A DNA stretch of 64,000 nt from IMG/VR virus record IMGVR_UViG_3300013947_000035, positions 1-64,000 of that record; one strand, written 5' to 3'. This stretch comes from a virus (Duplodnaviria > Caudoviricetes). Positions 1 through 36,176 of the stretch are shown here, piece by piece. Made by a program: the position numbers and the translations under genes. Each line of letters opens with the position of its first letter. Positions within the stretch are counted from its first letter, which is position 1. The notes beneath the pieces were generated by a model that worked only from the letters and a program-made list of their open reading frames with translations, was not told the DNA's origin and made no database searches.

Positions 1-62
1 TCCACCCACACCTCGCACCGCGAAGGACGGGAACGAGGGGGGGGGGGGGGGGGGGGGGGGGG

Positions 63-14842: not shown

Positions 14843-16525
14843 ATGACGATATTAGAATGGCTGCGCGCGCGCGTACGTAACGTAGCGGGTTCGGTCGTAA
14901 AAACGAAGCGACCCGACGATGAGCGAATGACGTTCATTAACGATAACGAAGCTATGGGGCGAATGAAGCTGAAAGAGTACGACGTGTGGTACGACGGCGA
15001 CGGCGACGAGTTATTGAACTTTTACACAAGGCAGAACTATATCGGCTTCAATTACGAACCGTTTTATGCCCGCAACAAGAAGAATTATTTTTGGGCGATA
15101 TCGAGTACAGAAGCGCAGATAAAGCGAACGCATAGCGGACAGCCGCGAAACATAGTCGATACGTTGGTGAACATAATGCCGTTTCCTTTGGTGTCGTGTT
15201 CGGAATCGGACAAGTTGAAAGCGGTGATAACCGAGAGCGGATTGGAACAAGTATATAAAGACGAACAGTTGCCGCTGACGTTGGTCGAGGGCTGGGGCTG
15301 TTGGAAGATAAATTGGGACAAAGACATAAGCGACTATCCGAGCGTCGAGTATGTATCGGCAGAGAACGTCGACTTCATATATAAGAACGGGAAAGTGATA
15401 GGGATTGTGTTCAAGAACTATTACACAAGCGAGAAGAAACGATACGTGCTGATGGAAACGAGGAGTATCGAATGGAAGCCGAAAGACGAAACTCTCACGC
15501 GCGCGCGTACGCATGCGTACAATATATATAATGGCGGGGGTGAAGGAGAGAGAGTGTTGGTAATCACGAACGAATTGTTCGAATTGCCTGCGAACATGTC
15601 AACGGACGATAATACGCCGCTGAAGAAAGTCGAGTTAGGAACTGTTTCAGCGCTGGCAGACGTCGAAGAAAGAATCGAAATCGGACCGTTTGATAAGTTG
15701 TTCGCCGTTCCTTGCATATTGTTAGGTAATACGAGCAAGCAGTGGGGTTATGGACGAAGCATATTCACAGGGAAAGTTGACTTGTTTGACGATTTGGACC
15801 AAGCGTTGTCACAGTCGTCGAATGCGGTAAGGTTGTCGACGCCGATAGAATACATAGACGAAGAATATCTTGACCGCGATAAGAACGGGTTGCCGAAGAA
15901 GCCACAATCATATGACAGAAAGTACGTTATGATGAAAGGACAGAGGAACGGAGACGGAACGACGACAGGACAGCCCGTACAAGTGACACAGCCGAGTGTA
16001 GATTTTTCTCGATATAGCGACCACGCGATACAGATATTGTTGCAGATACTGAACGGCATATTGTCACCCGCGACGTTGGGAATCGACATAGCAAAGAAAG
16101 ACAATGCCGCCGCCCAGCGTGAGAAAGAAAAGGTGACGATATTCACACGAAACGCGTTGATAAGCGGCGAAGAACGGATACTGCGTTCGCTTATGGAACA
16201 GTTGCTGATGGCGAAAGAGTTTATGGATACGGGAGCGGTAAGTGTTCATTCGTATGACATCTCGGTAAAGTTCAACGAGTTTGCGGACGACAGCTTCGAG
16301 AACAAGTTGGAAGCGTTGGGGAAAGCATACGATATGGAAGAAATATCGACGGATATGTATCTGAACAAGTTGTATGGCGACACATTGAGCGACGAAGAAC
16401 GGGCGGCGGAAAAAGAGTTTTTGGAATCGGCTCGTCAAGCGCGAACGGAAGCGTACTCGAACGCAGACGGCGGCGGGGCGAATACACAAGGGATGATAGA
16501 CAACATCTTCGACAGAAAGAGGTGA
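14843..16525 (+). CDS. portal protein (SPP1/A118-like)
   Basis: 560 aa; GWGCWKINWD, YGRSIF, LDQALSQ, LSPATLGID patterns. Confidence 0.85.
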   Translation: MTILEWLRARVRNVAGSVVKTKRPDDERMTFINDNEAMGRMKLKEYDVWYDGDGDELLNFYTRQNYIGFNYEPFYARNKKNYFWAISSTEAQIKRTHSGQPRNIVDTLVNIMPFPLVSCSESDKLKAVITESGLEQVYKDEQLPLTLVEGWGCWKINWDKDISDYPSVEYVSAENVDFIYKNGKVIGIVFKNYYTSEKKRYVLMETRSIEWKPKDETLTRARTHAYNIYNGGGEGERVLVITNELFELPANMSTDDNTPLKKVELGTVSALADVEERIEIGPFDKLFAVPCILLGNTSKQWGYGRSIFTGKVDLFDDLDQALSQSSNAVRLSTPIEYIDEEYLDRDKNGLPKKPQSYDRKYVMMKGQRNGDGTTTGQPVQVTQPSVDFSRYSDHAIQILLQILNGILSPATLGIDIAKKDNAAAQREKEKVTIFTRNALISGEERILRSLMEQLLMAKEFMDTGAVSVHSYDISVKFNEFADDSFENKLEALGKAYDMEEISTDMYLNKLYGDTLSDEERAAEKEFLESARQARTEAYSNADGGGANTQGMIDNIFDRKR

Positions 16526-16649
16526 AAAGAAAGGCGAAAAAGAAAAGGTTGCGCTTGCAACCTTTTTCTTTTGCCGTCTTTCCTTTTACCATATTCATTA
16601 CCGTGCTGGGGTTCGGGTCGGATAGGGAGTACCGTGCTAATGCGGGGAT

Positions 16650-16870
16650 AAGAAAAGAAGGAAGCACAACGGCTTCCTTCTTATATATTTGCGGCGGGCG
16701 GGTGGGTGATTGATGAGTTTAGAAGGGATACCGCTCGCCGCGATATTGGGGTGCAAAAGGAGTGCAAAAAGGCGATAAGGAAATACGAAGTATCACCGAC
16801 AGCTGTTTTGTGGGGGATGGGGTACGGCTGGGTGTCAGCGTCGCCTAAATCCCTATCGCGATTTTGTAAG
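16650..16870 (-). ncRNA. candidate sRNA (ORF-less promoter-terminator cassette)
   Basis: minus-strand TTTACA...TATAAT at about 16905-16876, terminator GAAGGAAGC/GCTTCCTTC plus U-tract, no RBS-ATG. Confidence 0.4.
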
Positions 16871-17130
16871 ATAATTATAGCATAAACGGCGGCGGCTGTA
16901 AAGGGGGTTAGAGCAAAAATTTACGTCTACAAAATATCTACAAATGTATATTTATGCAGTATTTATGTATAATTATACATTAAGTACCGTGCCATATTCA
17001 CCCCTATACCGTGCTCGAATATATACCCGAAAAGGCGCGATTCCGATACCGTGCTAACATCATAAAAGAAAACAGCCGCCCTCGTGGACGACCGTTTTCC
17101 CTTTTAGGAGATATGCCAATGAATGAGCAA

Positions 17131-17316
17131 TCAGATGAATACGACGCGCGCCATTCCGTTCTCGCGATAGAACAGGACCTCGCCCGTTTCCGCGTCGATA
17201 ATGTCAACGACAGCGGGGTCGGATATGAGCGCGTAATAGATTGATTTCGTGTGTTCGATGTACCCGTCGCGATTCTTGAATCGGACCAGGATATTGTTGC
17301 TTTTGTTAGTAGCCAT
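17131..17316 (-). CDS. early cassette hypothetical protein
   Basis: AAAGGAGG RBS, own promoter and terminator. Confidence 0.7.
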   Translation of the reverse strand: MATNKSNNILVRFKNRDGYIEHTKSIYYALISDPAVVDIIDAETGEVLFYRENGMARVVFI

Positions 17317-17564
17317 AATGCCGCCAACCTCCTTTCGTATCTTTATTATACCATAATTATACCACGCAAGCCCGACGCTGTAAAGGGGGTTAGCGAAAAT
17401 AATTGAGATAAAAATCGGCTATCTATGGGGTATTTTATTACCGTGCTATATATACAGCAAGTTACGAGCAAGTACGATTTCGGTATTCTAACCGTGCTAA
17501 TTTGGCAAAAAGAAAAGCGACGGCAAGTAATCGTGCCGCCGCCGTTCTCGTTTCGCGATTGCCT

Positions 17565-17837
17565 TCATCTCAGACTATTCGCGAGTTCGAAGCCTCTTGC
17601 GTGTCCGCAGTAGAAAATGTCGAGAAGTGTTTGCCACATTTCGTACGCGCTTCTGAAGTCGTTCGCGTTTCCGACGAATGTCGCTTCGGGGTTGTCGTCG
17701 GTATCGGTTTCATACTTCGTCAGGGTAAAGTAGAACGTTTCTGTGCCGTCGCCTGCCTTCTTCATTTCAAGAACGTTTCTGTGCCCCTTTAAGAGTCCGA
17801 GGTCTTTTGCTGCAATGATTTCATTTGGTTTGAACAT
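17565..17837 (-). CDS. early cassette hypothetical protein
   Basis: AAAGGAG RBS, own promoter and terminator. Confidence 0.8.
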   Translation of the reverse strand: MFKPNEIIAAKDLGLLKGHRNVLEMKKAGDGTETFYFTLTKYETDTDDNPEATFVGNANDFRSAYEMWQTLLDIFYCGHARGFELANSLR

Positions 17838-18066
17838 AGTGATGTTCTCCTTTGGTTTGATTTTGTACTCTCATTATATCATAATATCAAGCCGTTGTAA
17901 AGAGGGTTAGCAAAAATATTTCATACAATTTTTATACATTTTTTATACATATATGCACCGTGCAAAATATGCACATTGCTTCGGGCGCGATATAGTACCG
18001 TGCTATGTTTTTGGATATGGAAAAGCGACAGATTCAATTCTGTCGCTCTCTCGTCATATGAAATCC

Positions 18067-18354
18067 TTAATACGGCAATCCATAACCGCAAAGCAATGTT
18101 TGAGCGTTTGCGATTTGCTCAATATGCTCAATAAAGTTTCTTGAAATAGCAAAATCAACGGGGATTCTTGCGCTTCCGATATGCGTATTCCAGTCGAAAT
18201 CCGCTTTGGAATTGACTTTCACACAAGCAGTGAAAACGTTTTTGTTGACTTCGATATAAACGGTTTTGCGTCCGACTTTGGCTTCAAAACGAGTTCTGCC
18301 AGAATCAAGTCCGTCGATATACAGTTGACCATAATTGAAATTGTGTTGCTTCAT
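18067..18354 (-). CDS. early cassette hypothetical protein
   Basis: AAAAGGA RBS, own promoter. Confidence 0.75.
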   Translation of the reverse strand: MKQHNFNYGQLYIDGLDSGRTRFEAKVGRKTVYIEVNKNVFTACVKVNSKADFDWNTHIGSARIPVDFAISRNFIEHIEQIANAQTLLCGYGLPY

Positions 18355-18543
18355 AAAAAGTATATCCTTTTGTTTCTTTTGATACTCTTATTATACTACA
18401 ACAACAAATCGTTGTCAATAGATTTATAAAAAGAAAATTCGGAATTTTCGAATTATCTTATACCGCTACCGTGCTACTATGCCGTATCCGCCACGAGAGC
18501 GGATACGGAAAGCGACGGATTCTTGTTCCGCCGCCTTTTGATT

Positions 18544-18873
18544 TTAGTCTTTCCACGAGATTGAAGCAAAATCGATACTGCCGTCGCTGTTTAGTATCCG
18601 ATAGACTTCTGCGTGTTCTCTGATGTCCGCGATTTGTTCCGCGATAATCTCGTTCACGCGTTCGAGTCCGATTTTGTCCTCGTACTCTTCGATATATGCT
18701 TCGTACTTATATGAGTCTTTTCCGAGGTCGGATTCGTCGCCGTACGCGATAATTGAGTTTATCATTTGTCGCAGATACATTTCGTCCCTCAATCTGTATA
18801 TTTCGGGGGTGCGCTCGTGTTTTGGCAAGCGAAAGGTCGATTTTAATTTTTCTTGAATTTGTTTGTCTGTCAT
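18544..18873 (-). CDS. early cassette hypothetical protein
   Basis: GAGGTG RBS, terminator downstream. Confidence 0.8.
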   Translation of the reverse strand: MTDKQIQEKLKSTFRLPKHERTPEIYRLRDEMYLRQMINSIIAYGDESDLGKDSYKYEAYIEEYEDKIGLERVNEIIAEQIADIREHAEVYRILNSDGSIDFASISWKD

Positions 18874-18888
18874 AATACCACCTCTCTT

Positions 18889-19353
18889 TTATACAGATAG
18901 AACGTGATATGTTCCGAATTTTGCATAGAAAAAGTTCGTTTGCGTTATAATAAACTCTTTCAGTTCTTCTTCGGACATATTTCGCAATGTTTCGGCATCT
19001 TCTTTGCTGAATGCGTCACTGCTTGCAAGTTCTTCTATAAGGTCATATATGTTTTTGCTTGCCTTGCAATAATCGAATCCGATACAATCGAAAACTTCGT
19101 CGATGGTCTTGCATTTTTTGATAACGTCGATAACGTATTTTTCAAAGTCGTCGTCATCGAATACGTCTTTGTCGATATAGTCAACGTATATGCCGTTTAC
19201 CCATATAAAGCAACCATATTCGTCAAGCGGTCTTAAAACTTTATTATAACTGTTTCTGCCTTGTTTTACAAGATAATTGAATTCGTTTTCGGTGTTGTCT
19301 TGCGGTTCGCTGATAACGACATCGAGGTCGTCGCTGATTTTAATTTGTTTCAT
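18889..19353 (-). CDS. early cassette acidic protein
   Basis: AAAAGGAG RBS before ATG 19353. Confidence 0.8.
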   Translation of the reverse strand: MKQIKISDDLDVVISEPQDNTENEFNYLVKQGRNSYNKVLRPLDEYGCFIWVNGIYVDYIDKDVFDDDDFEKYVIDVIKKCKTIDEVFDCIGFDYCKASKNIYDLIEELASSDAFSKEDAETLRNMSEEELKEFIITQTNFFYAKFGTYHVLSV

Positions 19354-19526
19354 AATCGTATCTCCTTTTGTTTCGGGGTTATCCCCTTTGATTGTCTTCA
19401 TTATATCATAATAGAAAACGCTTGTCAATAGGTTTATCAAAATTGTTTCGCAGATTTTCTCGGATAATATGTTACCGTGCTAAAAGGGTATAAGAAAAGA
19501 ACGGCTTGCCGTCGCCGTTCTCGTTC

Positions 19527-19982
19527 TTAGTCTTCATATTCTTCGACTACTTGATTTTCAAATCCCCACTTACCAAAATACAAATTGTCTGCTCGTGGGG
19601 CTACAACTCGATTGTCCTCGTCGAGCATTGATTCCCATTCTGCGTACATATTCCAAATTGAAAACGCTCTCGATACATATCTTTGTCCTTTGCTGTTCGT
19701 ATCATACAATCCAACACAAACGGAAGCGGGGCAGATTGCTCTATCTTTGCCGTACTTGTTCTTAATCCAGCGTACGCAACGTCCAAACTCGATTCTGCAG
19801 CTGTCGCCAACGATGTCGTTGAATTCTTTGTTGATTTTCGCAAGCGTTTTTTCACCGCATTTCTTGCCGTCGTATTTCTTCAATACAAACTCGATAATAG
19901 GCGCAAGCTTGTGGAAGGTCGTCAAGTAAATAAGCGGGACTTCTTGGGTGCCATAGGATGCTGTGATTTCGTTCTTAATCAT
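19527..19982 (-). CDS. early cassette hypothetical protein
   Basis: AAAAGGAG RBS, own promoter and terminator. Confidence 0.8.
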   Translation of the reverse strand: MIKNEITASYGTQEVPLIYLTTFHKLAPIIEFVLKKYDGKKCGEKTLAKINKEFNDIVGDSCRIEFGRCVRWIKNKYGKDRAICPASVCVGLYDTNSKGQRYVSRAFSIWNMYAEWESMLDEDNRVVAPRADNLYFGKWGFENQVVEEYED

Positions 19983-20183
19983 AATGGTTATCTCCTTTTG
20001 TTACGAGGTTTTCTTAACCTCTTTACATTTACAATTATAATACAATATCAAATGTTTGTCAATGGATTTTTATAAAGTTTTCAAAAAAATCGAGATTGTT
20101 TCGTCGTCGTTTCGTCGTCGTTTCGTCACCGTGCTATATGCGGCAGAGAAAACGGCGGGAGTTTTGTCCCGCCGCCGCCGTTC

Positions 20184-20423
20184 TCAAAATATTGCACCTG
20201 TCGCAAACTTGTATGCGAGGTCTTCGATTTCGATTTCGTTATCGCCCACGTTCACAAACTCGTCAAAGCACCTGATGGCTTTCTGATGGTTGTGCCCAAA
20301 GCGTTCTATCCATTCGCCCGTTCTCGGGGAATAACGCGTTACGATTGCGTTGCCGTTCTTGATGTCGACTTCGTACCTTACGTTGACTTTGGTTGCTTCG
20401 TCATAGCTTACTTTGATTATCAT
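20184..20423 (-). CDS. early cassette hypothetical protein
   Basis: GGAGG RBS. Confidence 0.75.
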   Translation of the reverse strand: MIIKVSYDEATKVNVRYEVDIKNGNAIVTRYSPRTGEWIERFGHNHQKAIRCFDEFVNVGDNEIEIEDLAYKFATGAIF

Positions 20424-20426
20424 TGC

Positions 20427-20810
20427 TTACGCCTCCTTTGCGGTAATATTTACTGTCGCTACCCAACACACACTTCTAAACATAGCGTCGAGGTTGAGGC
20501 GGGGCTTGTTGATGTTCTTACGCACCCATTCGTACCATACCGATTTCGGCGTTTCGGTGTGCATTCTATAAAGCTTCGAGTCAAAGAATTCGTCGAGGTC
20601 TTCAAGATTGCGCTTCAATTCGCCAATCTTGCGCCCGCTACGATTTGTCTTTTTAAGCTCTTTTGCGAGGTCGTAAGAAAAGTTGTAAAGGTCTTTGACG
20701 GATTGCATTAGAATTGCGCCGTAAAGCGTCTCAGCGGCTTTGTCGTCTACGATATAGCTGCCGAAGCTTTGGTCGTCTTGTTCGATTGCTTGCGTTGTGA
20801 TGTCTTTCAT
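20427..20810 (-). CDS. early cassette hypothetical protein
   Basis: AAGGAG RBS, own promoter. Confidence 0.8.
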   Translation of the reverse strand: MKDITTQAIEQDDQSFGSYIVDDKAAETLYGAILMQSVKDLYNFSYDLAKELKKTNRSGRKIGELKRNLEDLDEFFDSKLYRMHTETPKSVWYEWVRKNINKPRLNLDAMFRSVCWVATVNITAKEA

Positions 20811-20996
20811 AAGTTATATCTCCTTCCGATTTCGGGCTTCGTTCGTTCCCTTATCTTCCCCTCCATTGTAATACCATACAAAATAATTGTCAAGCGATTT
20901 TTACAAAGTTTTTTTGCGATTTTGAAAATTTCTTTTTCGGCGGCGGGACAGTGATATTAATAGCACGGTGGCAGGATGAAAAGAAAAGCGGATGGC

Positions 20997-21389
20997 TTAT
21001 ACCTCCGCTTTCTCGTCTTCGTCTTCCTCGTCGTCAAGGATTTCTCTTATTTCGCTTCTTCCGAAGTCCTCGTCGTATTCAACTGCGTATTCGGCGATTT
21101 CACAAGCGAACCATCCGTCTGCATTGTCGGGGAAGTCGCTCGATACGACGTTGCCGTAACCATTGAACCAGAACCACATATGGTACGGATTGTAGTCACC
21201 GAACGCAACCATATTCGCAATTTCGCTGGGCGTTTTCCCCGTCATAAGTTCGTCGAAGTCGTCTGTTGAATAGATATATTTCTCACCATTCACACTCTCT
21301 TGATATGCGTTGTTGACGTCTACGAGTTCGTTGTCGCTGAGTTCGTCGAGGATTGCTTCAATTGCTTTCATTTTTGTTTCTTGTGTCAT
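20997..21389 (-). CDS. highly acidic early protein (DNA-mimic candidate)
   Basis: D/E-rich, WFNGYGN motif, acidic tail. Confidence 0.8.
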   Translation of the reverse strand: MTQETKMKAIEAILDELSDNELVDVNNAYQESVNGEKYIYSTDDFDELMTGKTPSEIANMVAFGDYNPYHMWFWFNGYGNVVSSDFPDNADGWFACEIAEYAVEYDEDFGRSEIREILDDEEDEDEKAEV

Positions 21390-21561
21390 AATAATAACTC
21401 CTTTTGTTTCGGTTGCTGTTTCTCAACCTCTTTACACTTAGGATTATATCACCATAGCAAACCGTTGTCAAGGGGTTTAGTAAAAATATTTTAGATTTTT
21501 TGAAAATTATTCCGAAGCCACTAAACGCGATTTAAGCACGGTTACGGTTAAATTCGATAAC

Positions 21562-22011
21562 TTATTCGGAATCGATGCCAAAACCGCCTTGCTGTCGCTT
21601 ACATTCGTTTCCCGAGTATGTTCCGATGATTGACAAGAACTCTTTCGTATAATTCGCTACGATTGTCTTCACTGCGTCTCTGTAAATTTCTTCAAGGTCA
21701 AGCATATTGCAAGAATGAGCAAGGTAAACGCAAATCATATTCCAAATCACCGCACCCGTAAACAGCACACCAAAAAAAACAGCGAATACGATTCCGCCAA
21801 TGCGTTCGCCTTTGATAAAAAACAATGCCGATATACCTGCGACTACAAGCATAAACACGAGCCACTCTATCCAAACTCTAACGATGACTTTTCTACGTTG
21901 CTTTTTCATACCGTGCTGGATTATGTCGTATTTGATTGCAGCTGCCGCCAATTCGTCTTTGAACTTCTGCGTTGCGATTCTGCATAAAATATCTTTTGCT
22001 GTCGTTTCCAT
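21562..22011 (-). CDS. two-TM membrane protein, near-leaderless
   Basis: two hydrophobic helices; ATG 9 nt after TATAAT, no SD. Confidence 0.7.
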   Translation of the reverse strand: METTAKDILCRIATQKFKDELAAAAIKYDIIQHGMKKQRRKVIVRVWIEWLVFMLVVAGISALFFIKGERIGGIVFAVFFGVLFTGAVIWNMICVYLAHSCNMLDLEEIYRDAVKTIVANYTKEFLSIIGTYSGNECKRQQGGFGIDSE

Positions 22012-22116
22012 AGTGCTGATATTATACCACAAAGCCGCCGCCTTGTAAATAGGGTTAGCACGGTAACTTATATAAAAAAAGAACGGCTCGTCGCCGTTCT
22101 CGTTTTTTTGTTGTTA

Positions 22117-22365
22117 TTATTCAAGCGATATTGTTCTGATTTCGATTTCAATGGTTTCGTCATTGAATCCTTCTTCTGCCGTCCAATAAAAATACCTGTC
22201 GTTATTGTCTTCGATAACGCCGCTGTTGCCGCAACCATAATCGTTGATATACGTCTTTTTCATCGTTTCAAAAAACGCTTTCGCTTTCTCTTCCGTCGTA
22301 AATGCGTTTATGGTTGTGTTGCTTGTTCCGTCCGTTTCTGTTATCACTATGGCGTAAATGTCCAT
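22117..22365 (-). CDS. early cassette hypothetical protein
   Basis: AAAAGGAG RBS. Confidence 0.8.
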   Translation of the reverse strand: MDIYAIVITETDGTSNTTINAFTTEEKAKAFFETMKKTYINDYGCGNSGVIEDNNDRYFYWTAEEGFNDETIEIEIRTISLE

Positions 22366-22541
22366 TGTTATTTCTCCTTTTGTTTCGGGGACTCTTGTTC
22401 CCCTTTGAACAATTATATATTACCATAATATCAAATCATTGTCAAGCATATTTTGAAAATATTTTAGAATTTCTCAAAAACTTTTTGCCGCTCTCGATTC
22501 ATAGCACGGCTGATAGGCAAAAAGAAAAGCGGCGACTTTCG

Positions 22542-23066
22542 TCAACCGCCTATCGATATGAGATTGTCAAGCCAAACGGTGATAAGTGTCGGCGCACCCG
22601 ATTTCGATTGCTTGCCAACCACTTTCTCGATGTCGTCTTTGTTGGTGAACTCCGCACCATTCACAAACCATTTCGATTTCGTCTTCGTTGCCGTTTTGCT
22701 GTTGAACAACTTCACCTTGTACTTAATCTCGCCCTCTTTCTCGTTCTTGATAAGCAAGTTTTCGTAACCGCTCAATGGTGTGTCATATGCGCTCGTTCTC
22801 GATGGTGTGTCCTTATCCGCCGCCACAACTCTTGTGAGATAGTCCGATGTGTGTCTATAATCGATTCCAAGCCTTGCCACGCACTCGCTATACTTCTCAA
22901 CCATTGTTGCCCCGTTCTCTTTCTCGTATCCTTTCAAAGCCCTTTTCTCGCTCTTGTACGCAACCTTAACATATGCGCCTTTCTTGATTTCGTTGCTATC
23001 AAACATCGATTTAATGGTGTTCAATCTCTCGTCTGCGGTCATTCCGTCAAAAACAACTTTTTTCAT
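22542..23066 (-). CDS. early cassette basic protein
   Basis: AAGAGGT RBS. Confidence 0.8.
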   Translation of the reverse strand: MKKVVFDGMTADERLNTIKSMFDSNEIKKGAYVKVAYKSEKRALKGYEKENGATMVEKYSECVARLGIDYRHTSDYLTRVVAADKDTPSRTSAYDTPLSGYENLLIKNEKEGEIKYKVKLFNSKTATKTKSKWFVNGAEFTNKDDIEKVVGKQSKSGAPTLITVWLDNLISIGG

Positions 23067-23268
23067 AATCATACCTCTTTTGTTTTATTCCGTTGTCGGT
23101 CTTTCAACCTCTAACACTTACGATTATAATACCATAACAAATAAATGTCAAGCATATTTCGCAATTATTTTAGACAATTTCATTTTTACCCCTACTGATG
23201 GGTAAAATCGATTCATAGCACGGCTACTATTATAAAAAGAAGAACGGCTTGCTACCGTTCCTCTTATA

Positions 23269-23595
23269 TCAATCTGTTGTTCTCAAATAGTATTTTATAT
23301 CTTCGCCTTTGAGATTGTTCATACACCATTCGTCAATGCGTTCCCATAGTTCGTTATAAACTCTTGCCAGTTTTTCGTTTCTTTCGTAGTGTTCCCAAAT
23401 CTTCCAGTTCGTTGCCATTGACAATTCGGTCACATACACAACATTGTCTTTCCAGCTCTCGAACGCTCTCTCGAACGTTTCTTTTACCGCTTCGATACCA
23501 AATCTTTCCGCTATCGAAAAGTCCATATAAAAAGTCGTTTGCGGTTTGTAGCCTGTCATTTCTTCGATGTTCCAGTTCTTAAAAGCTTGTAGCAT
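23269..23595 (-). CDS. conserved phage hypothetical protein
   Basis: TTFYMDFSIAERFG...NWKIWEHY; AAAGGAG RBS. Confidence 0.85.
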   Translation of the reverse strand: MLQAFKNWNIEEMTGYKPQTTFYMDFSIAERFGIEAVKETFERAFESWKDNVVYVTELSMATNWKIWEHYERNEKLARVYNELWERIDEWCMNNLKGEDIKYYLRTTD

Positions 23596-23759
23596 AATTT
23601 TAACTCCTTTCGTTTCGAGGTTCTTATGTCCTCTTTGATTGTTTTTATTATAACATAGTATCAAGTCGTTGTCAATAGATTTTGATAAAATATTTTTACA
23701 ATTTCATTTTTGTGTCCTGCCGATACAAGCACGGTTGCCGCCACTGTATCCGCCGCCGA

Positions 23760-23900
23760 ACAAAGAAAGAGGACGGTCACCTTTCGATGCCGTCCTGCCT
23801 TTCGTTGACTTGTTGATTCCAGCGGTCTGACTCGCTGCGGATGGGTGTCAACTGTCCTCGCCTGTCCATTGAGTCGTAACAATTTCTTTCTTTTTCCCTT
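23760..23900 (-). ncRNA. candidate sRNA (ORF-less cassette)
   Basis: TTGACA promoter at about 23941-23912, GTTGAC/GTCAAC and CAGCG/CGCTG stems, terminator AGGACGG/CCGTCCT plus U-tract. Confidence 0.45.
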
Positions 23901-24007
23901 TGCTACGTCTATATATTATCACAACAACCAACCATTGTCAAGCGGATTAACAAAGTTTTTAATTTATTTTAATTCTTTTTAATTCGTTTTAATTTTTGGC
24001 TCGTTTT

Positions 24008-24855
24008 TAAGAAAATACTCTCTTTTGAATCTCACAAAAGAACCAAAAGAACAATAGAAAGAAAACGTGTACGTAGTACACGCAAAAGAAAGAACATAAG
24101 AAAAGGTACAAATAACCATATTGACAAACGCTAAACGCTATCGACAAATGATTGATATGCCCTGCGCTGAATCCGTTCTCATACCCACTTACACTATATA
24201 TAAGTAATATCTACTACTATGCACGGTTTCACAAAATCTCTATCCGCAAGAAAAGGTGCCCCAAAAGAATCAAAAGAACAATAGAAAGAAAAAGGTATAC
24301 GTAGTATACCTACAAAGAAAGAACATAAGAAAAGTTATGAAACATTTTTTCAAAAGGCAAAGTTATATACTACGTATATAAAAGCAAAATTTCCAAAACA
24401 TCTTCCGAGTTCTTTTTTTGATTATTAATTGAAAAAAGTAAATATTATATACTACGTATATATTATTTACATTTTTCAGTTAATTTCGGCACGTTTTGTA
24501 AACTGTCCGCGCGTAAAGGAGCTTCTTTTTTTTATCTTCCCTCACGATTTTTCTTCCTTGCGCGTAGATAATTTATAAAAACACTAAAAATTAACTGAAA
24601 AATGTAAATAATATATACGTAGTATATAATATTTACTTTTTTCAATTAATAACCGAAAAAAATTCTCGGAAGATGTCGGTTTTATCAAATCCTTTATATA
24701 CAAAGTATATAATCCGAAAATCTGTCAAGTAGGTTTAGCACTCTTCTTATGTTCTTTCTTTTGAGGACGATACATAGTATCGTCCTTTTTCTTTCTATTG
24801 TTCTTCTGCTTCTTTTGTTGTTATCTTTTCTTGCAACAGTCTTTTTGTGAAACAT
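24008..24855. repeat. nested-palindrome element B
   Basis: ~88-bp inverted arms 24398-24486 / 24588-24676 plus outer purine/pyrimidine arms carrying triloop hairpins. Confidence 0.9.
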
Positions 24856-24932
24856 TGCACGGCTGCCTCAAAACATAAAAAACGACGACGGATTCATTCC
24901 CGTCGCCGCTTCCGATTCTTGCTTGTGTTTGA

Positions 24933-25361
24933 TTAGTATTCAAGCAAATCTTCTAACTCGTATTCGAACCAATGCGCTATTGTCGCCATTGCAAACTCGA
25001 ACTGCCATTGCGCCAACCTTATCTTGTTAAATGCGCCGTAACACAATGGGTCATTCTTGTCCATTCCGTCAATGTCCATAGGATTGATTCCGCCGTCGTC
25101 TGCGAGGTTATCGTTAATTTCAAGACGATGCTTCTCAAAGTAGTCGATTGCGAACTTGATGTCACCATACATTTCTGTTCTGACTTTTTTACCATTCGCA
25201 CTATCGACAATGAGTTGTGTCAAATCGTCAAGGTTGTGTTCGATTGCCTCATTGTTCAAATACAAAACTGCTTCCGATACTGCATCGTCGCACAAAATGG
25301 AATCGTAACCATTGCCGTTTGCTGTTGCGTTAAGTTGTTCTCTGCTGATTTTTTTCGCCAT
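24933..25361 (-). CDS. acidic early protein (Ocr-like DNA-mimic candidate)
   Basis: D/E-rich; YFEKH..EI...DPL....N...LA.W.FE pattern. Confidence 0.75.
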   Translation of the reverse strand: MAKKISREQLNATANGNGYDSILCDDAVSEAVLYLNNEAIEHNLDDLTQLIVDSANGKKVRTEMYGDIKFAIDYFEKHRLEINDNLADDGGINPMDIDGMDKNDPLCYGAFNKIRLAQWQFEFAMATIAHWFEYELEDLLEY

Positions 25362-25515
25362 ATGGCATTTCCTCTGCGTTCGTGGGCTTCATTCGTTCCC
25401 TTTGAACAATTCTATATTATCACCATATCAAATAATTGTCAACTACTTTTTTGTCATTTTCGTAAACTTTTTTCAAAATATTGTATTTCGGCGGCGGCTA
25501 TGGTAAAATACTCGT

Positions 25516-26286
25516 ATGAAAAAGCAAACTTACACCCCAACCAAAGCAACCACACAACTGATGGCGACCATAGCAAAAGGCGTAAACGAGAACCGCCGCC
25601 TGTCCGATATTGACGATGCGATACGCACGGTCGTGAACTCGTATACGGGATTGAATCGTCGCGAACGCTCTCGTCTGATGCATAATGCGTTCGATATGGC
25701 TCGTCGCGTTAAGGCTAACGGCATTGACGAACTCGCTTCCCGAACTGCTTACGACTCGTTTATGGCTACTTCTCGAAAGGTTATGGCTACGGCTGACACT
25801 CGGAATAAAATGGTTACGCTCTCGTCCGATATTGCTGACTTCGAAAACGAAAGAGGCTATGAACCGATATTCTTTGCTTGCTCGTATCATTCGAACTGCT
25901 CTTGCGGTCACGACGATTATCAAGGCAAAATCTACGTCGATAGGTTTTGGCGTACAAAAGTCAATGGCACGGATTATTATCGCGTACTCTCGTATATCAA
26001 GAATCGCAATATCAAAACCGTTCAATCCGTCGTCAAGTCGCCGATATGGCTGACGACTCGTCCATACTGCCGCCATTACTTCGTCCCTGTTTCGACTGCT
26101 GATGTTCTCGGCTCGTCTCCGAAAAAGATACTCCACGACTACAACGCTTACCATTACACACCCGACTACTACACCAACGATGAATACTTCCGCATTCGTT
26201 CTGATGTGTATACTGAACTGAACCGACTCGTTCCTGCACCTGAATTCAAGACGATGATAGAACGCAGTCGCCGCCGCAGACATTAA
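25516..26286 (+). CDS. minor capsid / head morphogenesis protein (MuF/gp7-like), leaderless
   Basis: CSYHSNCSCGHDDYQGKIY...TRPYCRHYF; ATG 6 nt after TAAAAT. Confidence 0.75.
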   Translation: MKKQTYTPTKATTQLMATIAKGVNENRRLSDIDDAIRTVVNSYTGLNRRERSRLMHNAFDMARRVKANGIDELASRTAYDSFMATSRKVMATADTRNKMVTLSSDIADFENERGYEPIFFACSYHSNCSCGHDDYQGKIYVDRFWRTKVNGTDYYRVLSYIKNRNIKTVQSVVKSPIWLTTRPYCRHYFVPVSTADVLGSSPKKILHDYNAYHYTPDYYTNDEYFRIRSDVYTELNRLVPAPEFKTMIERSRRRRH

Positions 26287-26339
26287 GCACGGCTGACGAC
26301 GTAAAAGAAAAGCGACGGATTTGCTGCCGTCGCTCTTTT

Positions 26340-26591
26340 TTATTCCTCATCATCCTCCTCGTCTTCGTCCTCGTTGCCGATTCCCAACCATTCGTAAACA
26401 GTTTCGGAATCGAACCTTAGTAAGTCGTTCAACTCTGTTTCGGTGATTCCGTCGGGATACATTTCTTCGAGAATGTTTTCGAGTTGTTCCCAACCGTCTT
26501 CGCCCTTTTCTTCCCAAATACGATTTGCCGTATCGACTGCGCCGCTCCAAAACTTAAAATTCGCCAAACTTGTTTCGCTGATAATTTTCAT
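26340..26591 (-). CDS. small highly acidic early protein
   Basis: FWSGA...YPDGITETELNDLL...EWLG, poly-acidic tail. Confidence 0.8.
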   Translation of the reverse strand: MKIISETSLANFKFWSGAVDTANRIWEEKGEDGWEQLENILEEMYPDGITETELNDLLRFDSETVYEWLGIGNEDEDEEDDEE

Positions 26592-26889
26592 AATGATTTT
26601 CTCCTTTCGTTTCGGGACTCTTTCGTTCCCTTTGAACGATTATATATTATCATAATACCAAACCGTTGTCAAGAGGTTTTTGAAAATATTTTAGATAATT
26701 TCATTTTTGCCCATTCAACGGGTAAAAATCACTTGTCGCTTTCGACAACGCTTTGCACGGGGCTTGTTTTCCAGCGACAAATTTTTTTTTGATGCGCGTT
26801 TCCAGCGACAAGGGTTTTGCACGGTTGCGTTTTTCAAAGACAAAAAAAATAGCGGTCGATTTTCTCAACCGCTACTTCCTATTGTTTTT

Positions 26890-27189
26890 TTATGCAAGCA
26901 ATGCAATTTGCGCTTCCGCTTTCTTCGATGTCATTATGCAACCTTTACCAAACACAACTTCGCCCGCTTTCTTTGCTTTTTCGATGTTCCCAACGAGTTC
27001 AAGAGGTACGATTCCGTAAACCTCATAATCGCCAACACCCTCAACCCAAAAGCCCATATTAGTTTTGTTGTCGTAACATCTTCCGAGTTTGCAACCCCAT
27101 TGAATTGCCCATACGTTATAAAGTCTTGAATCGATAACCATTGTGATGTCACCTTTGAAAAATCCTTTGTTACTTGTGATTGATGTCAT
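26890..27189 (-). CDS. early cassette hypothetical protein
   Basis: AAAGGAG RBS before ATG 27189. Confidence 0.75.
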   Translation of the reverse strand: MTSITSNKGFFKGDITMVIDSRLYNVWAIQWGCKLGRCYDNKTNMGFWVEGVGDYEVYGIVPLELVGNIEKAKKAGEVVFGKGCIMTSKKAEAQIALLA

Positions 27190-27484
27190 AATCGTATCTC
27201 CTTTCGCTTCGGTTGCTGATTCCCTCAACCTCTTTACATTTACAATTATATCACCATAGCAAATATTTGTAAAGCGATTTTAGCATATTAAATCAAAAAA
27301 AATAATTTTTTTTCGAGCCCGTATCTGCGCCCGATTCCGCCGACGCACTCAAAGCCGATTCCTTGCACGGTAGCCGTTGAGACGAACACTTTATCTATGC
27401 CACGCCGACACTGCCCTAATGCTCGCTACAAGCCGTTATATGCCCACACAAGCCCACAAGCGCAAGACCAAATAAGGACCGATA

Positions 27485-27561
27485 GGGGGTAGGGGTAGCA
27501 AGGGGTTTCGAGAGGGGGGGTGGGTATCATATAATGCTTCCCCGTCCCCGACCCCACCCCC
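27485..27561. other. G-tract cluster followed by C-tract cluster (G-quadruplex potential on both strands)
   Basis: five G-runs of 3-6 nt, then four C-runs of 4-5 nt. Confidence 0.6.
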
Positions 27562-27846
27562 GCGAACGGATTTGACACACAGAGGGTATGCGTCAGCGTA
27601 CTCTCTTGGATTCAGCTCACCCCGTCTCGAAAATTTTGCAGGTCGGGAATGAGAACGAATTTGACCCAAAGGCGCAAGTGCAACGAAGCGGGAAAATATA
27701 CAAAAATGGGGCATAAATATACACGAAGCCAAAAAAGTTTGAAAAAAGTATTGCGTTTTTGAGATTAGTGTGTTAGGATTGAGGGTAGACAGGACCGAAG
27801 TCGTAAAAATCGGGTATAACTCTAAATTTTAACGAGGTGTAGCAGA

Positions 27847-35896: not shown

Positions 35897-36176
35897 AAAT
35901 TTGGCTTTTGGGTGTTTTTAAGCCATAGTGGTATACTCCTCCTGGAAAAACTCACAATATGTTGTGGGTTTTTTCATTTTTTGCTTGATTTTTCCACAAA
36001 TGTATACTATTATAATGATAGCAGGTATGCGCATTCTTGTGTATATTTGTGTTTTCCCTTTGCGTGCGGGCTTGGTTAATATCCGAGTCCGTGCTATTTT
36101 TTTAGGAAGTTTTTGATAAAGGGTTGAAATTTGCGGATTAGTATTGTACAATTATGTTTATAAGCGAGGTGCGAAT

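Follow-up and report, generated by a model that had tools for sequence, protein, structure and literature searches.

A strict asymmetric site beside cassette terminators of an uncultured gut phage is arranged in two zones of opposite direction

Cluster A mycobacteriophages carry short asymmetric sites, the stoperators, which are 13 bp long, are found genome-wide along the direction of transcription and lie in intergenic gaps and mostly outside promoters. These 20-30 sites per genome are bound by a monomeric helix-turn-helix (HTH) repressor, the L5 gp71-type immunity repressor, which blocks elongation (PMC6550527; complex structure PDB 7R6R). Chi and KOPS/SRS, too, are short words with strand polarity that switch direction at a defined point, and they occur as host words in hundreds to thousands of replication-skewed copies per genome. 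The Tus-Ter and RTP-Ter replication fork traps are characterized by a short asymmetric site that is arranged in two opposed blocks and bound by a polar barrier protein. The repressors of phage P1 (C1) and of Bacillus phage phi105 recognize non-palindromic operators at many places in one genome, and in integrons one attC site stands at the 3' end of each cassette. Here we analyzed the word GCACGG in a stretch of 64,000 nucleotides (the window; positions 1 to 64,000 of IMG/VR record IMGVR_UViG_3300013947_000035) that belongs to the genome of an uncultured gut phage, a single contig of 78,008 bp. The word recurs in an array of about 11 kb, which consists of about 18 units of promoter, small gene and intrinsic terminator, almost all on the minus strand (Table 1). 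Its arrangement is a real, conserved and previously undescribed layout of a regulatory-type site among multi-copy asymmetric phage protein sites. That its polarity reflects something more unusual is conceivable, but we do not expect it.

Copies are written '<' where CCGTGC stands on the + strand and '>' where GCACGG does. An initial annotation of the window had listed 24 intergenic copies and one exception within an open reading frame (ORF) at 21911, and every one of these coordinates was exact; two + strand copies at 25625 and 25967, both within gene 25516-26286, had been overlooked. Genome-wide, GCACGG occurs 30 times, and 27 of these copies lie inside the array (16601-27370), where Markov models of order 1-3 predict 3-4. 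It is the top enriched hexamer of the array. Outside the array the same models predict 16-19 copies and only three are found, so that the word is 5-6 times rarer than expected and stands 21st when 1910 hexamer pairs are ordered by depletion; each of its single-substitution neighbors occurs there 9-48 times. Density and bias are therefore not genome-wide properties, a possibility that had been named as an objection to the original proposal. One-mismatch variants of GCACGG were not enriched in the array, which argues that the word is strict. An alignment of 160 distinct copies, taken from the window and from seven relatives, gave a consensus of about tTAGCACGGTa, with TAGCACGGT as the strict nine-base site. 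The hexamer is strict and its flanks are weaker, no other position is conserved within 40 bp on either side, and the information content never exceeded 0.5 bit outside positions -2 to +7. The site has no dyad symmetry. In the array, 22 of the 27 copies lie in untranscribed gaps, and the annotated context, between one terminator and the next promoter, was borne out. Helical phasing of multiple sites, judged by eye from the site coordinates, showed no clear period.

Strict short asymmetric words are typical of restriction and modification enzymes. The hexamer could be a host restriction, BREX-like or methylation target that the phage purges from most of its genome, with the array copies serving as decoys, protected sites or methylation-read switches. 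Depletion of the word outside the array would agree with this, and so would the avoidance of several palindromic restriction-type hexamers in a genome with at least four methyltransferase genes. However, 27 conserved copies in fixed places beside terminators are the opposite of avoidance. Moreover, copies form head-to-head pairs (27365 '>' with 36089 '<', and 21536 '>' with 21911 '<'), and hence the layout does not evade a type III enzyme. No known enzyme that recognizes the word was identified, although no search aimed at one was made. We consider this explanation very unlikely. As an observation on the genome at large, strongly avoided palindromic hexamers outside 16526-27846 were TTTAAA (4 copies vs 71 expected), TTCGAA (42 vs 121), CAATTG (4 vs 47), CTCGAG (2 vs 32) and ATGCAT (0 vs 23), and the non-palindromic CTCTTC was also low. 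Beside at least four methyltransferase genes, this avoidance is a restriction-avoidance signature.

The position of the site is set by the terminators. Read on the minus strand, a cassette ends with a hairpin, a U-tract, a gap of 7-12 bp and then the site. Each cassette terminator in the window has one copy, whichever direction that copy points, and the gap between hexamer and U-tract has its mode at 9-10 bp in both orientation classes. In the 11 arrays taken together, the hexamer was most often 8-11 bp from the U-tract and 16-19 bp from the stem, again in both classes. The length of this gap is fixed, its sequence is not conserved. The distance from the site to the next -35 element ranged from 8 to about 150 bp, and the site at 22058 kept its terminator spacing and not its promoter spacing. 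The fixed spacing ties the site to the ends of transcription units. This differs from the operators of P1 C1 and phi105, which overlap or adjoin promoters. Longer spacers carry one or two additional copies, and the left border of the array carries two; most relatives have 2-4 '<' copies there. A two-part promoter used by a host or phage sigma factor was rejected, since there is no second conserved element and half of the sites face away from the next gene. A signal at the RNA level was ruled out by the occurrence of both directions at the same place.

The same word follows the portal gene at ten related loci, which come from metagenomes of the human gut and other sources and have portal proteins 69-94% identical. 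None of these loci has a copy within 10 kb upstream of the portal gene. In all five whole relative records that were scanned, two of which are complete 76-kb genomes, AGCACGG was confined to the array. Where distant relatives have orthologous spacers, as for the site at 22058, the hexamer persists together with the -10 element and the terminator while the rest has diverged (alignment A3; the hexamer is likewise invariant in alignment A1). Profile searches for more distant relatives with the portal and with a 127-aa protein returned the same small group only, and a head-protein search of genome contigs found no prophage relative.

While position follows the terminators, direction follows a second rule. 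Along the window, 12 '<' copies (16601-20129) are followed by 14 '>' copies (20963-27365), with 21911 as the one exception. None of 200,000 shuffles was as ordered as the window and the site is conserved in relatives, which confirms the strand-polar motif proposed initially. The same order, with '<' toward the portal gene, was found in five lineages with 1, 1, 1, 3 and 3 out-of-order copies (permutation P from below 1e-5 to 0.02). The flip point, for which a check in relatives had been suggested, is another matter: the portal-side order is kept, but the position of the flip moves between relatives and no conserved element is found there. As proposed, the flip is independent of transcription, and genes on both sides of it stay on the minus strand. 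The accompanying statement that all cassettes are on the minus strand holds for the 16 strong near-consensus promoters (TTGACA-17-TATAAT type), all of which are minus-strand, but not for 25516-26286, the sole + strand gene of the array.

Comparison of orthologous spacers showed that single sites change direction. After the 130-aa gene (20997-21389) the site is '>' in the window and '<', at equal spacing, in L001, L002 and L005 (alignment A1). After the 176-aa gene it is '>' in the window vs '<' in L002 and L005. For the 108-aa cassette, the site is '>' in the window and '<' in L007, where this cassette sits in the '<' half. Judged from these flipped sites in orthologous spacers and from opposite sites on the same cassette, direction is not inherited with the cassette. 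A single inversion with a breakpoint at about 20.5 kb, the other objection raised at the outset, was rejected: gene strands are kept on both sides, relatives are co-linear, and individual sites flip in orthologous spacers.

Copies within genes mostly match their zone and not the strand of the gene. In L007, the rightward portal gene carries four '<' copies within the last 500 bp of its 3' end (L007 7341-7762). They arose by changed codons (Arg-Ala) and a small insertion, and the usual cluster after the portal gene is absent, which suggests that border sites were selected for even where they fall in a coding region. In the '>' halves of L003 and L004, copies that are apparently inside leftward genes, with gene calls made by eye, are '>'. 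The clear in-gene exception is a '<' copy in the '>' half, found at 21911 in the window and at 5905 in L006. Three convergent site pairs, 25-26 bp apart, lie mid-array in L003 and L004, and thus one spacer can hold both directions. Taken together, two rules apply: the position of a site follows the terminators whatever its direction, and its direction follows the place in the array whatever the transcription.

Inherited order with slow mixing served as the null explanation for the polarity. It is weakened by the flips between close relatives and by the zone-consistent copies in the L007 portal gene. A related idea is that the hexamer is a functionless passenger of a duplicating terminator module and that the two blocks are two old module families. 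Local duplication would give neighbors that point alike, as observed, and promoter, leader and terminator repeats are indeed common to the cassettes. Yet the hexamer is invariant where its flanks, including the 7-12 bp gap, have diverged beyond alignment, flipped sites stand at equal spacing in orthologous spacers, L007 gained four copies within portal coding sequence, and the word is avoided in the rest of the genome. We regard a passenger as highly improbable.

Since the word is strict, short and asymmetric, forms a conserved island, is confined to one block and is avoided elsewhere, we infer a protein recognition site on duplex DNA. The strict hexamer, the weaker flanks and the lack of any other conservation within 40 bp on either side argue for a single short asymmetric site. 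We tentatively propose that a sequence-specific DNA-binding protein recognizes it and insulates or silences the cassettes at their terminators; this is our preferred reading, although we would not put it at even chances. In this proposal TAGCACGGT would be a cis-acting recognition site on double-stranded DNA for one protein, encoded by phage or host, that binds as a monomer or otherwise asymmetrically and acts as a boundary element just past the intrinsic terminator of each cassette, with additional copies at both outer ends of the array. Because the footprint of RNA polymerase extends roughly 15-20 bp downstream of its active site, the enzyme would meet a protein bound 7-12 bp past the U-tract while the active site is still within the U-tract. 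The encounter would hold the polymerase where the transcript is released and keep it from reading on into the next cassette or the portal gene. The bound protein could also seed shut-off of the entire early array, and the additional copies at the left border would shield the portal gene, which is convergent with the array. Avoidance of the word outside the array would be expected if a bound site inside an operon were harmful. Polarity would then be either inherited order or a further requirement of this protein, for instance directional contacts or looping between the halves. Protein binding, the action on transcription and the identity of the binder are each putative in this proposal. A precedent is provided by the Cluster A mycobacteriophages, in which 20-30 asymmetric repressor sites per genome block elongation (PMC6550527).

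Several points weigh against this proposal. The sites point one way or the other without regard to transcription. Rightward late genes hold copies of opposite direction (four '<' in the L007 portal gene, two '>' in 25516-26286), which contradicts a polar block on RNA polymerase either way round, and a non-polar block leaves the polarity unaccounted for. The copies within genes sit uneasily with the idea that a bound site is harmful there. Terminators that we inspected outside the array have no site, so termination as such does not need it. The stoperator array is the closest described system, with a similar number of short asymmetric intergenic sites, but two of its defining features are not shared: the site of this phage is 9 bp long and limited to an 11-kb array, where it is tied to terminators and ignores the direction of transcription. 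In addition, no homologue of the stoperator repressor was found in the phage (7r6r, E = 0.95), and no evidence of lysogeny was seen.

The binder assumed in the boundary proposal has a single candidate, which is a guess from conservation and therefore counts among the weak points of that proposal as well. It is a 223-aa protein with a zinc-ribbon-like stretch and a C-terminal HTH of sigma-region-4 or resolvase type (Table 1), for which Pfam reports HTH_7 and Sigma70_r4 matches. Its recognition helix, SRQRV[Y/H]QI, is near-invariant in relatives that are about 35% identical overall, and homologues were found in this phage group only. The AlphaFold2 model (pLDDT 71) gave no significant fold match, and only the HTH resembles other proteins, namely many HTH proteins including 7r6r, at non-significant scores.

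The opposed orientation of the two zones could also point to polar replication signals. They could form a Ter-like trap that lets forks in and not out, or start sites of a primase-polymerase on single-stranded DNA, with synthesis outward from mid-array; for the latter, the template sequence bearing the site would be ACCGTGCTA or its complement. Asymmetric sites in two opposed groups match the layout of the Tus-Ter and RTP-Ter traps, and also that of the Ter pair of plasmid R6K. Polarity tracks array position, and not gene identity or transcription, in five lineages. Border copies are extra and point in the same direction, in L007 even within portal coding sequence, and a replication role would fit the avoidance of stray sites in the rest of the genome. 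Among the phage proteins is a primase-polymerase-helicase with an NrS-1-type helix-bundle domain, and CCGTGC contains GTG, the template core that is read by the pRN1 and NrS-1 enzymes (PMC8718748). Nevertheless, we consider a replication signal unlikely. It does not account for the fixed 7-12 bp terminator spacing in both orientations. The site is much shorter than known Ter sites, which span 20-30 bp. Ter sites are present in fewer than about ten copies and lie across from a known origin, whereas the phage sites are locked to transcription terminators. No contrahelicase gene is recognizable in the phage, and Pfam scans of 46 of its ORFs revealed no Tus or RTP relative, although an unrelated protein could serve. 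A flip point that shifts between relatives with no conserved element also speaks against a trap, and two of the three outside copies, at 36089 and 54704 and both '<', would by the logic of a trap stall a leftward fork toward the array, if such a fork exists.

Strand composition, which might betray fork direction, gave inconsistent results. GC skew at third codon positions (GC3 skew) of the same-strand cassette genes was -0.35 in the '<' half (17131-20810) vs -0.05 in the '>' half (21562-27190). The 130-aa gene 20997-21389, first of the '>' half, has a left-like value of -0.36 and is pooled right for the -0.05 figure. The L002 group has the same split, with the boundary between the 130-aa and 149-aa genes, and L003, L004 and L007 have none. 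Skew in the spacers was weak, and overall these tests gave no consistent fork direction between lineages. In more general terms, the two opposed polar sets might act on a DNA-tracking machine other than RNA polymerase, be it a fork, a helicase-nuclease or a loop-forming complex, with the terminators shielding the sites from transcription. The early-gene region of the phage would then include a Ter-like trap or a directional loading zone. We think this unlikely.

Variation of the array between relatives raises the question of recombination. Cassette content and order vary between the window and its relatives, with junctions in spacers, and the alignments are otherwise co-linear. The cassette of gene 18067-18354 is missing from L002, where one site is left at the junction; a 0.5-kb cassette between two window copies thus corresponds to one copy in L002. 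The hexamer could accordingly be a signal for cassette exchange, either a Chi-like helicase-nuclease hotspot or a short crossover point at cassette borders. Read as 5'-GCACGG-3', the sites of both halves are oriented toward an enzyme coming in from outside the array, as Chi has to be for activity, and the phage has a PDDEXK nuclease (DUF3799) and a single-stranded-DNA-binding (SSB)-like gene. In having one site at each cassette 3' end in an array of variable content, the locus also resembles an integron. However, attC sites are long imperfect palindromes in one direction with an integrase gene adjacent, and none of this holds for the array sites; with two directions, a 9-bp non-palindrome and no integrase in the scanned ORFs, integron-type recombination sites were rejected. 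Site-specific inversion was rejected as well, as opposed sites would invert the DNA between them but none of the 11 arrays has an inverted segment, and no recombinase was seen among the ORFs scanned. Homology breaks between relatives do not fall exactly at the hexamer, the repeats of about 100 bp (promoter and leader) that are common to cassettes already suit ordinary recombination, and the terminator spacing is again unaccounted for. A host word of the Chi or KOPS type, as the initial annotation had considered, is not supported either. In five candidate host-clade Clostridia genomes, which were picked via the closest RtcB matches and may not be of the host's clade, AGCACGGT was counted 2-59 times per 1.3-2.6 Mb, which is close to the count of a control word or exceeds it by no more than about twofold, and the phage itself avoids the word outside the array. 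We judge an exchange signal to be quite unlikely.

It is in arrays of small, self-contained early genes that phages keep functions for host takeover and anti-defence, and the insulation, timing and reshuffling of such arrays are poorly known. Here, one strict nine-base word stands at every cassette end and is kept across phages with differing cassettes, and a positional polarity rule goes beyond explanation by transcription. A binder, if found, would give access to the regulation of the entire array and provide a simple sequence tag by which such arrays could be recognized in metagenomes. Should the polarity reflect fork or translocase control, no trap of this kind would have been described in a tailed phage before.

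Table 1. Positions of the site copies and of other features. Coordinates are those of the record unless a locus is named; for site copies the strand is that on which GCACGG reads.
Feature	Position	Strand	Context
Left-boundary '<' pair, 16601 and 16632	16601..16637	-	Portal terminator (16543-16566) on one side, last-cassette terminator (16655-16682) on the other
Three '<' sites, 16987, 17009 and 17049	16987..17054	-	17049: 9 bp to A-tract, terminator of gene 17131-17316
Two '<' sites, 17441 and 17492	17441..17497	-	17492: 9 bp to A-tract of terminator 17516-17543
Two '<' sites, 17958 and 17998	17958..18003	-	17998 adjoins terminator of gene 18067-18354
'<' site	18469..18474	-	Adjoins hairpin 18483-18509, downstream of operon 18544-19353
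'<' site	19475..19480	-	11 bp to A-tract of terminator 19497-19522
Last '<' site	20129..20134	-	12 bp to A-tract, terminator of operon 20184-20810
First '>' site	20963..20968	+	10 bp to A-tract, terminator of gene 20997-21389
'>' site	21536..21541	+	20 bp past stop codon of gene 21562-22011
In-ORF '<' copy	21911..21916	-	Within gene 21562-22011; sole out-of-order copy in the window
'>' site	22058..22063	+	10 bp to A-tract of terminator 22079-22101; 8 bp to next -35
'>' site	22504..22509	+	9 bp to A-tract of terminator 22531-22550; flipped in L002 (17317) and L005 (18115)
'>' site	23218..23223	+	10 bp to A-tract of terminator 23237-23265 (gene 23269-23595)
'>' site	23729..23734	+	Beyond hairpin (about 23769-23797) of ORF-less cassette; promoter at 23941
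'>' site	24221..24226	+	Inside palindromic gene-free stretch 24.0-24.9 kb
'>' site	24857..24862	+	7 bp to A-tract of terminator 24878-24913
Two in-ORF '>' copies, 25625 and 25967	25625..25972	+	Within + gene 25516-26286; kept in L002 (20449, 20791)
'>' site	26287..26292	+	Right after stop codon of + gene; 10 bp to A-tract, bidirectional terminator 26308-26337
Two '>' sites, 26755 and 26819	26755..26824	+	26819 adjoins terminator 26844-26880
Right-boundary '>' site	27365..27370	+	92 bp upstream of first promoter of the array (27273); no terminator close by
Cassette array	16526..27846	-	Bounded by portal gene and by scaffold and major head genes (27847 onward, +)
Candidate binder, 223 aa	10028..10699	+	CxxC...CxxC zinc-ribbon-like stretch; C-terminal sigma-region-4 / resolvase-type HTH
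Portal gene	14843-16525	+	Matches phrog_533
Major head protein	29092-30354		Matches phrog_422
Primase-polymerase-helicase	65878-68382		NrS-1-type helix-bundle domain
Large terminase	70705-72246
16-bp tandem repeat arrays	L015 8185-8290; L027 613-740; L070 4188-4260

The contig is probably a closed circle that was broken at an assembly artefact, since an N6/N4 methyltransferase gene is split over its ends beside poly-G runs (window 1-62; genome 77,900-78,008). Pfam and PHROG searches gave no function for the array proteins, and an Rfam scan of the array region gave no match up to the gathering score of its family. Two cassettes, 16650-16902 and 23760-23941 (both on the minus strand), contain no credible ORF despite a consensus promoter and a terminator. 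Their predicted transcripts of about 200 and 150 nt, respectively, for which Rfam gave nothing above noise, may be small RNAs; the DNA of the first is not conserved in L001, L002 or L005. In cassette 21562-22026 (minus strand), the -10 box lies 9 nt ahead of the ATG and there is no ribosome-binding site, which suggests a leaderless mRNA; the translated sequence is hydrophobic as judged by eye. The Cys/His-rich C-terminal stretch of the 25516-26286 protein may resemble SPP1 gp7 / MuF-type head proteins, which normally come after the portal gene; the protein had no match in Pfam or PHROGs. The cassette protein 20427-20810 is the only one common to all arrays and is predicted to be a plain helical bundle, and its model found no match.

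The array was also compared with VIPR guide-RNA arrays, which consist of tandem YNNGG five-base repeats (bioRxiv 10.64898/2026.04.26.720920). This candidate was rejected, as no run of such repeats exceeds three units anywhere in the genome. Most matches of a wide pattern scan of viral contigs were coding sequence or simple tandem repeats. In each of three 80-90-kb phages of the same metagenome, one intergenic region has 5-8 tandem 16-bp repeats, GCACGGTACAGCTTGA (containing GCACGGTA; Table 1), and none of these phages has a full homologue of the HTH candidate. A 38.6-kb phage (IMGVR_UViG_3300037067_001196; L013 / L128) carries about nine ttAGCACGGTa copies at 16,300-17,250, with '<' first and '>' after, in a stretch of 1 kb that has no genes and directly precedes an Sf6-type small terminase gene (terS). 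A full tblastn comparison with the window phage revealed no shared protein and no HTH-candidate homologue. This cluster may be a coincidence or reflect a shared host factor, and it is possible that the 16-bp tandem arrays and the cluster are both coincidences. Elsewhere in the window, ORF 671-1282 matches the Tad3 family of type I Thoeris inhibitors (Pfam PF25185, E = 8e-27).

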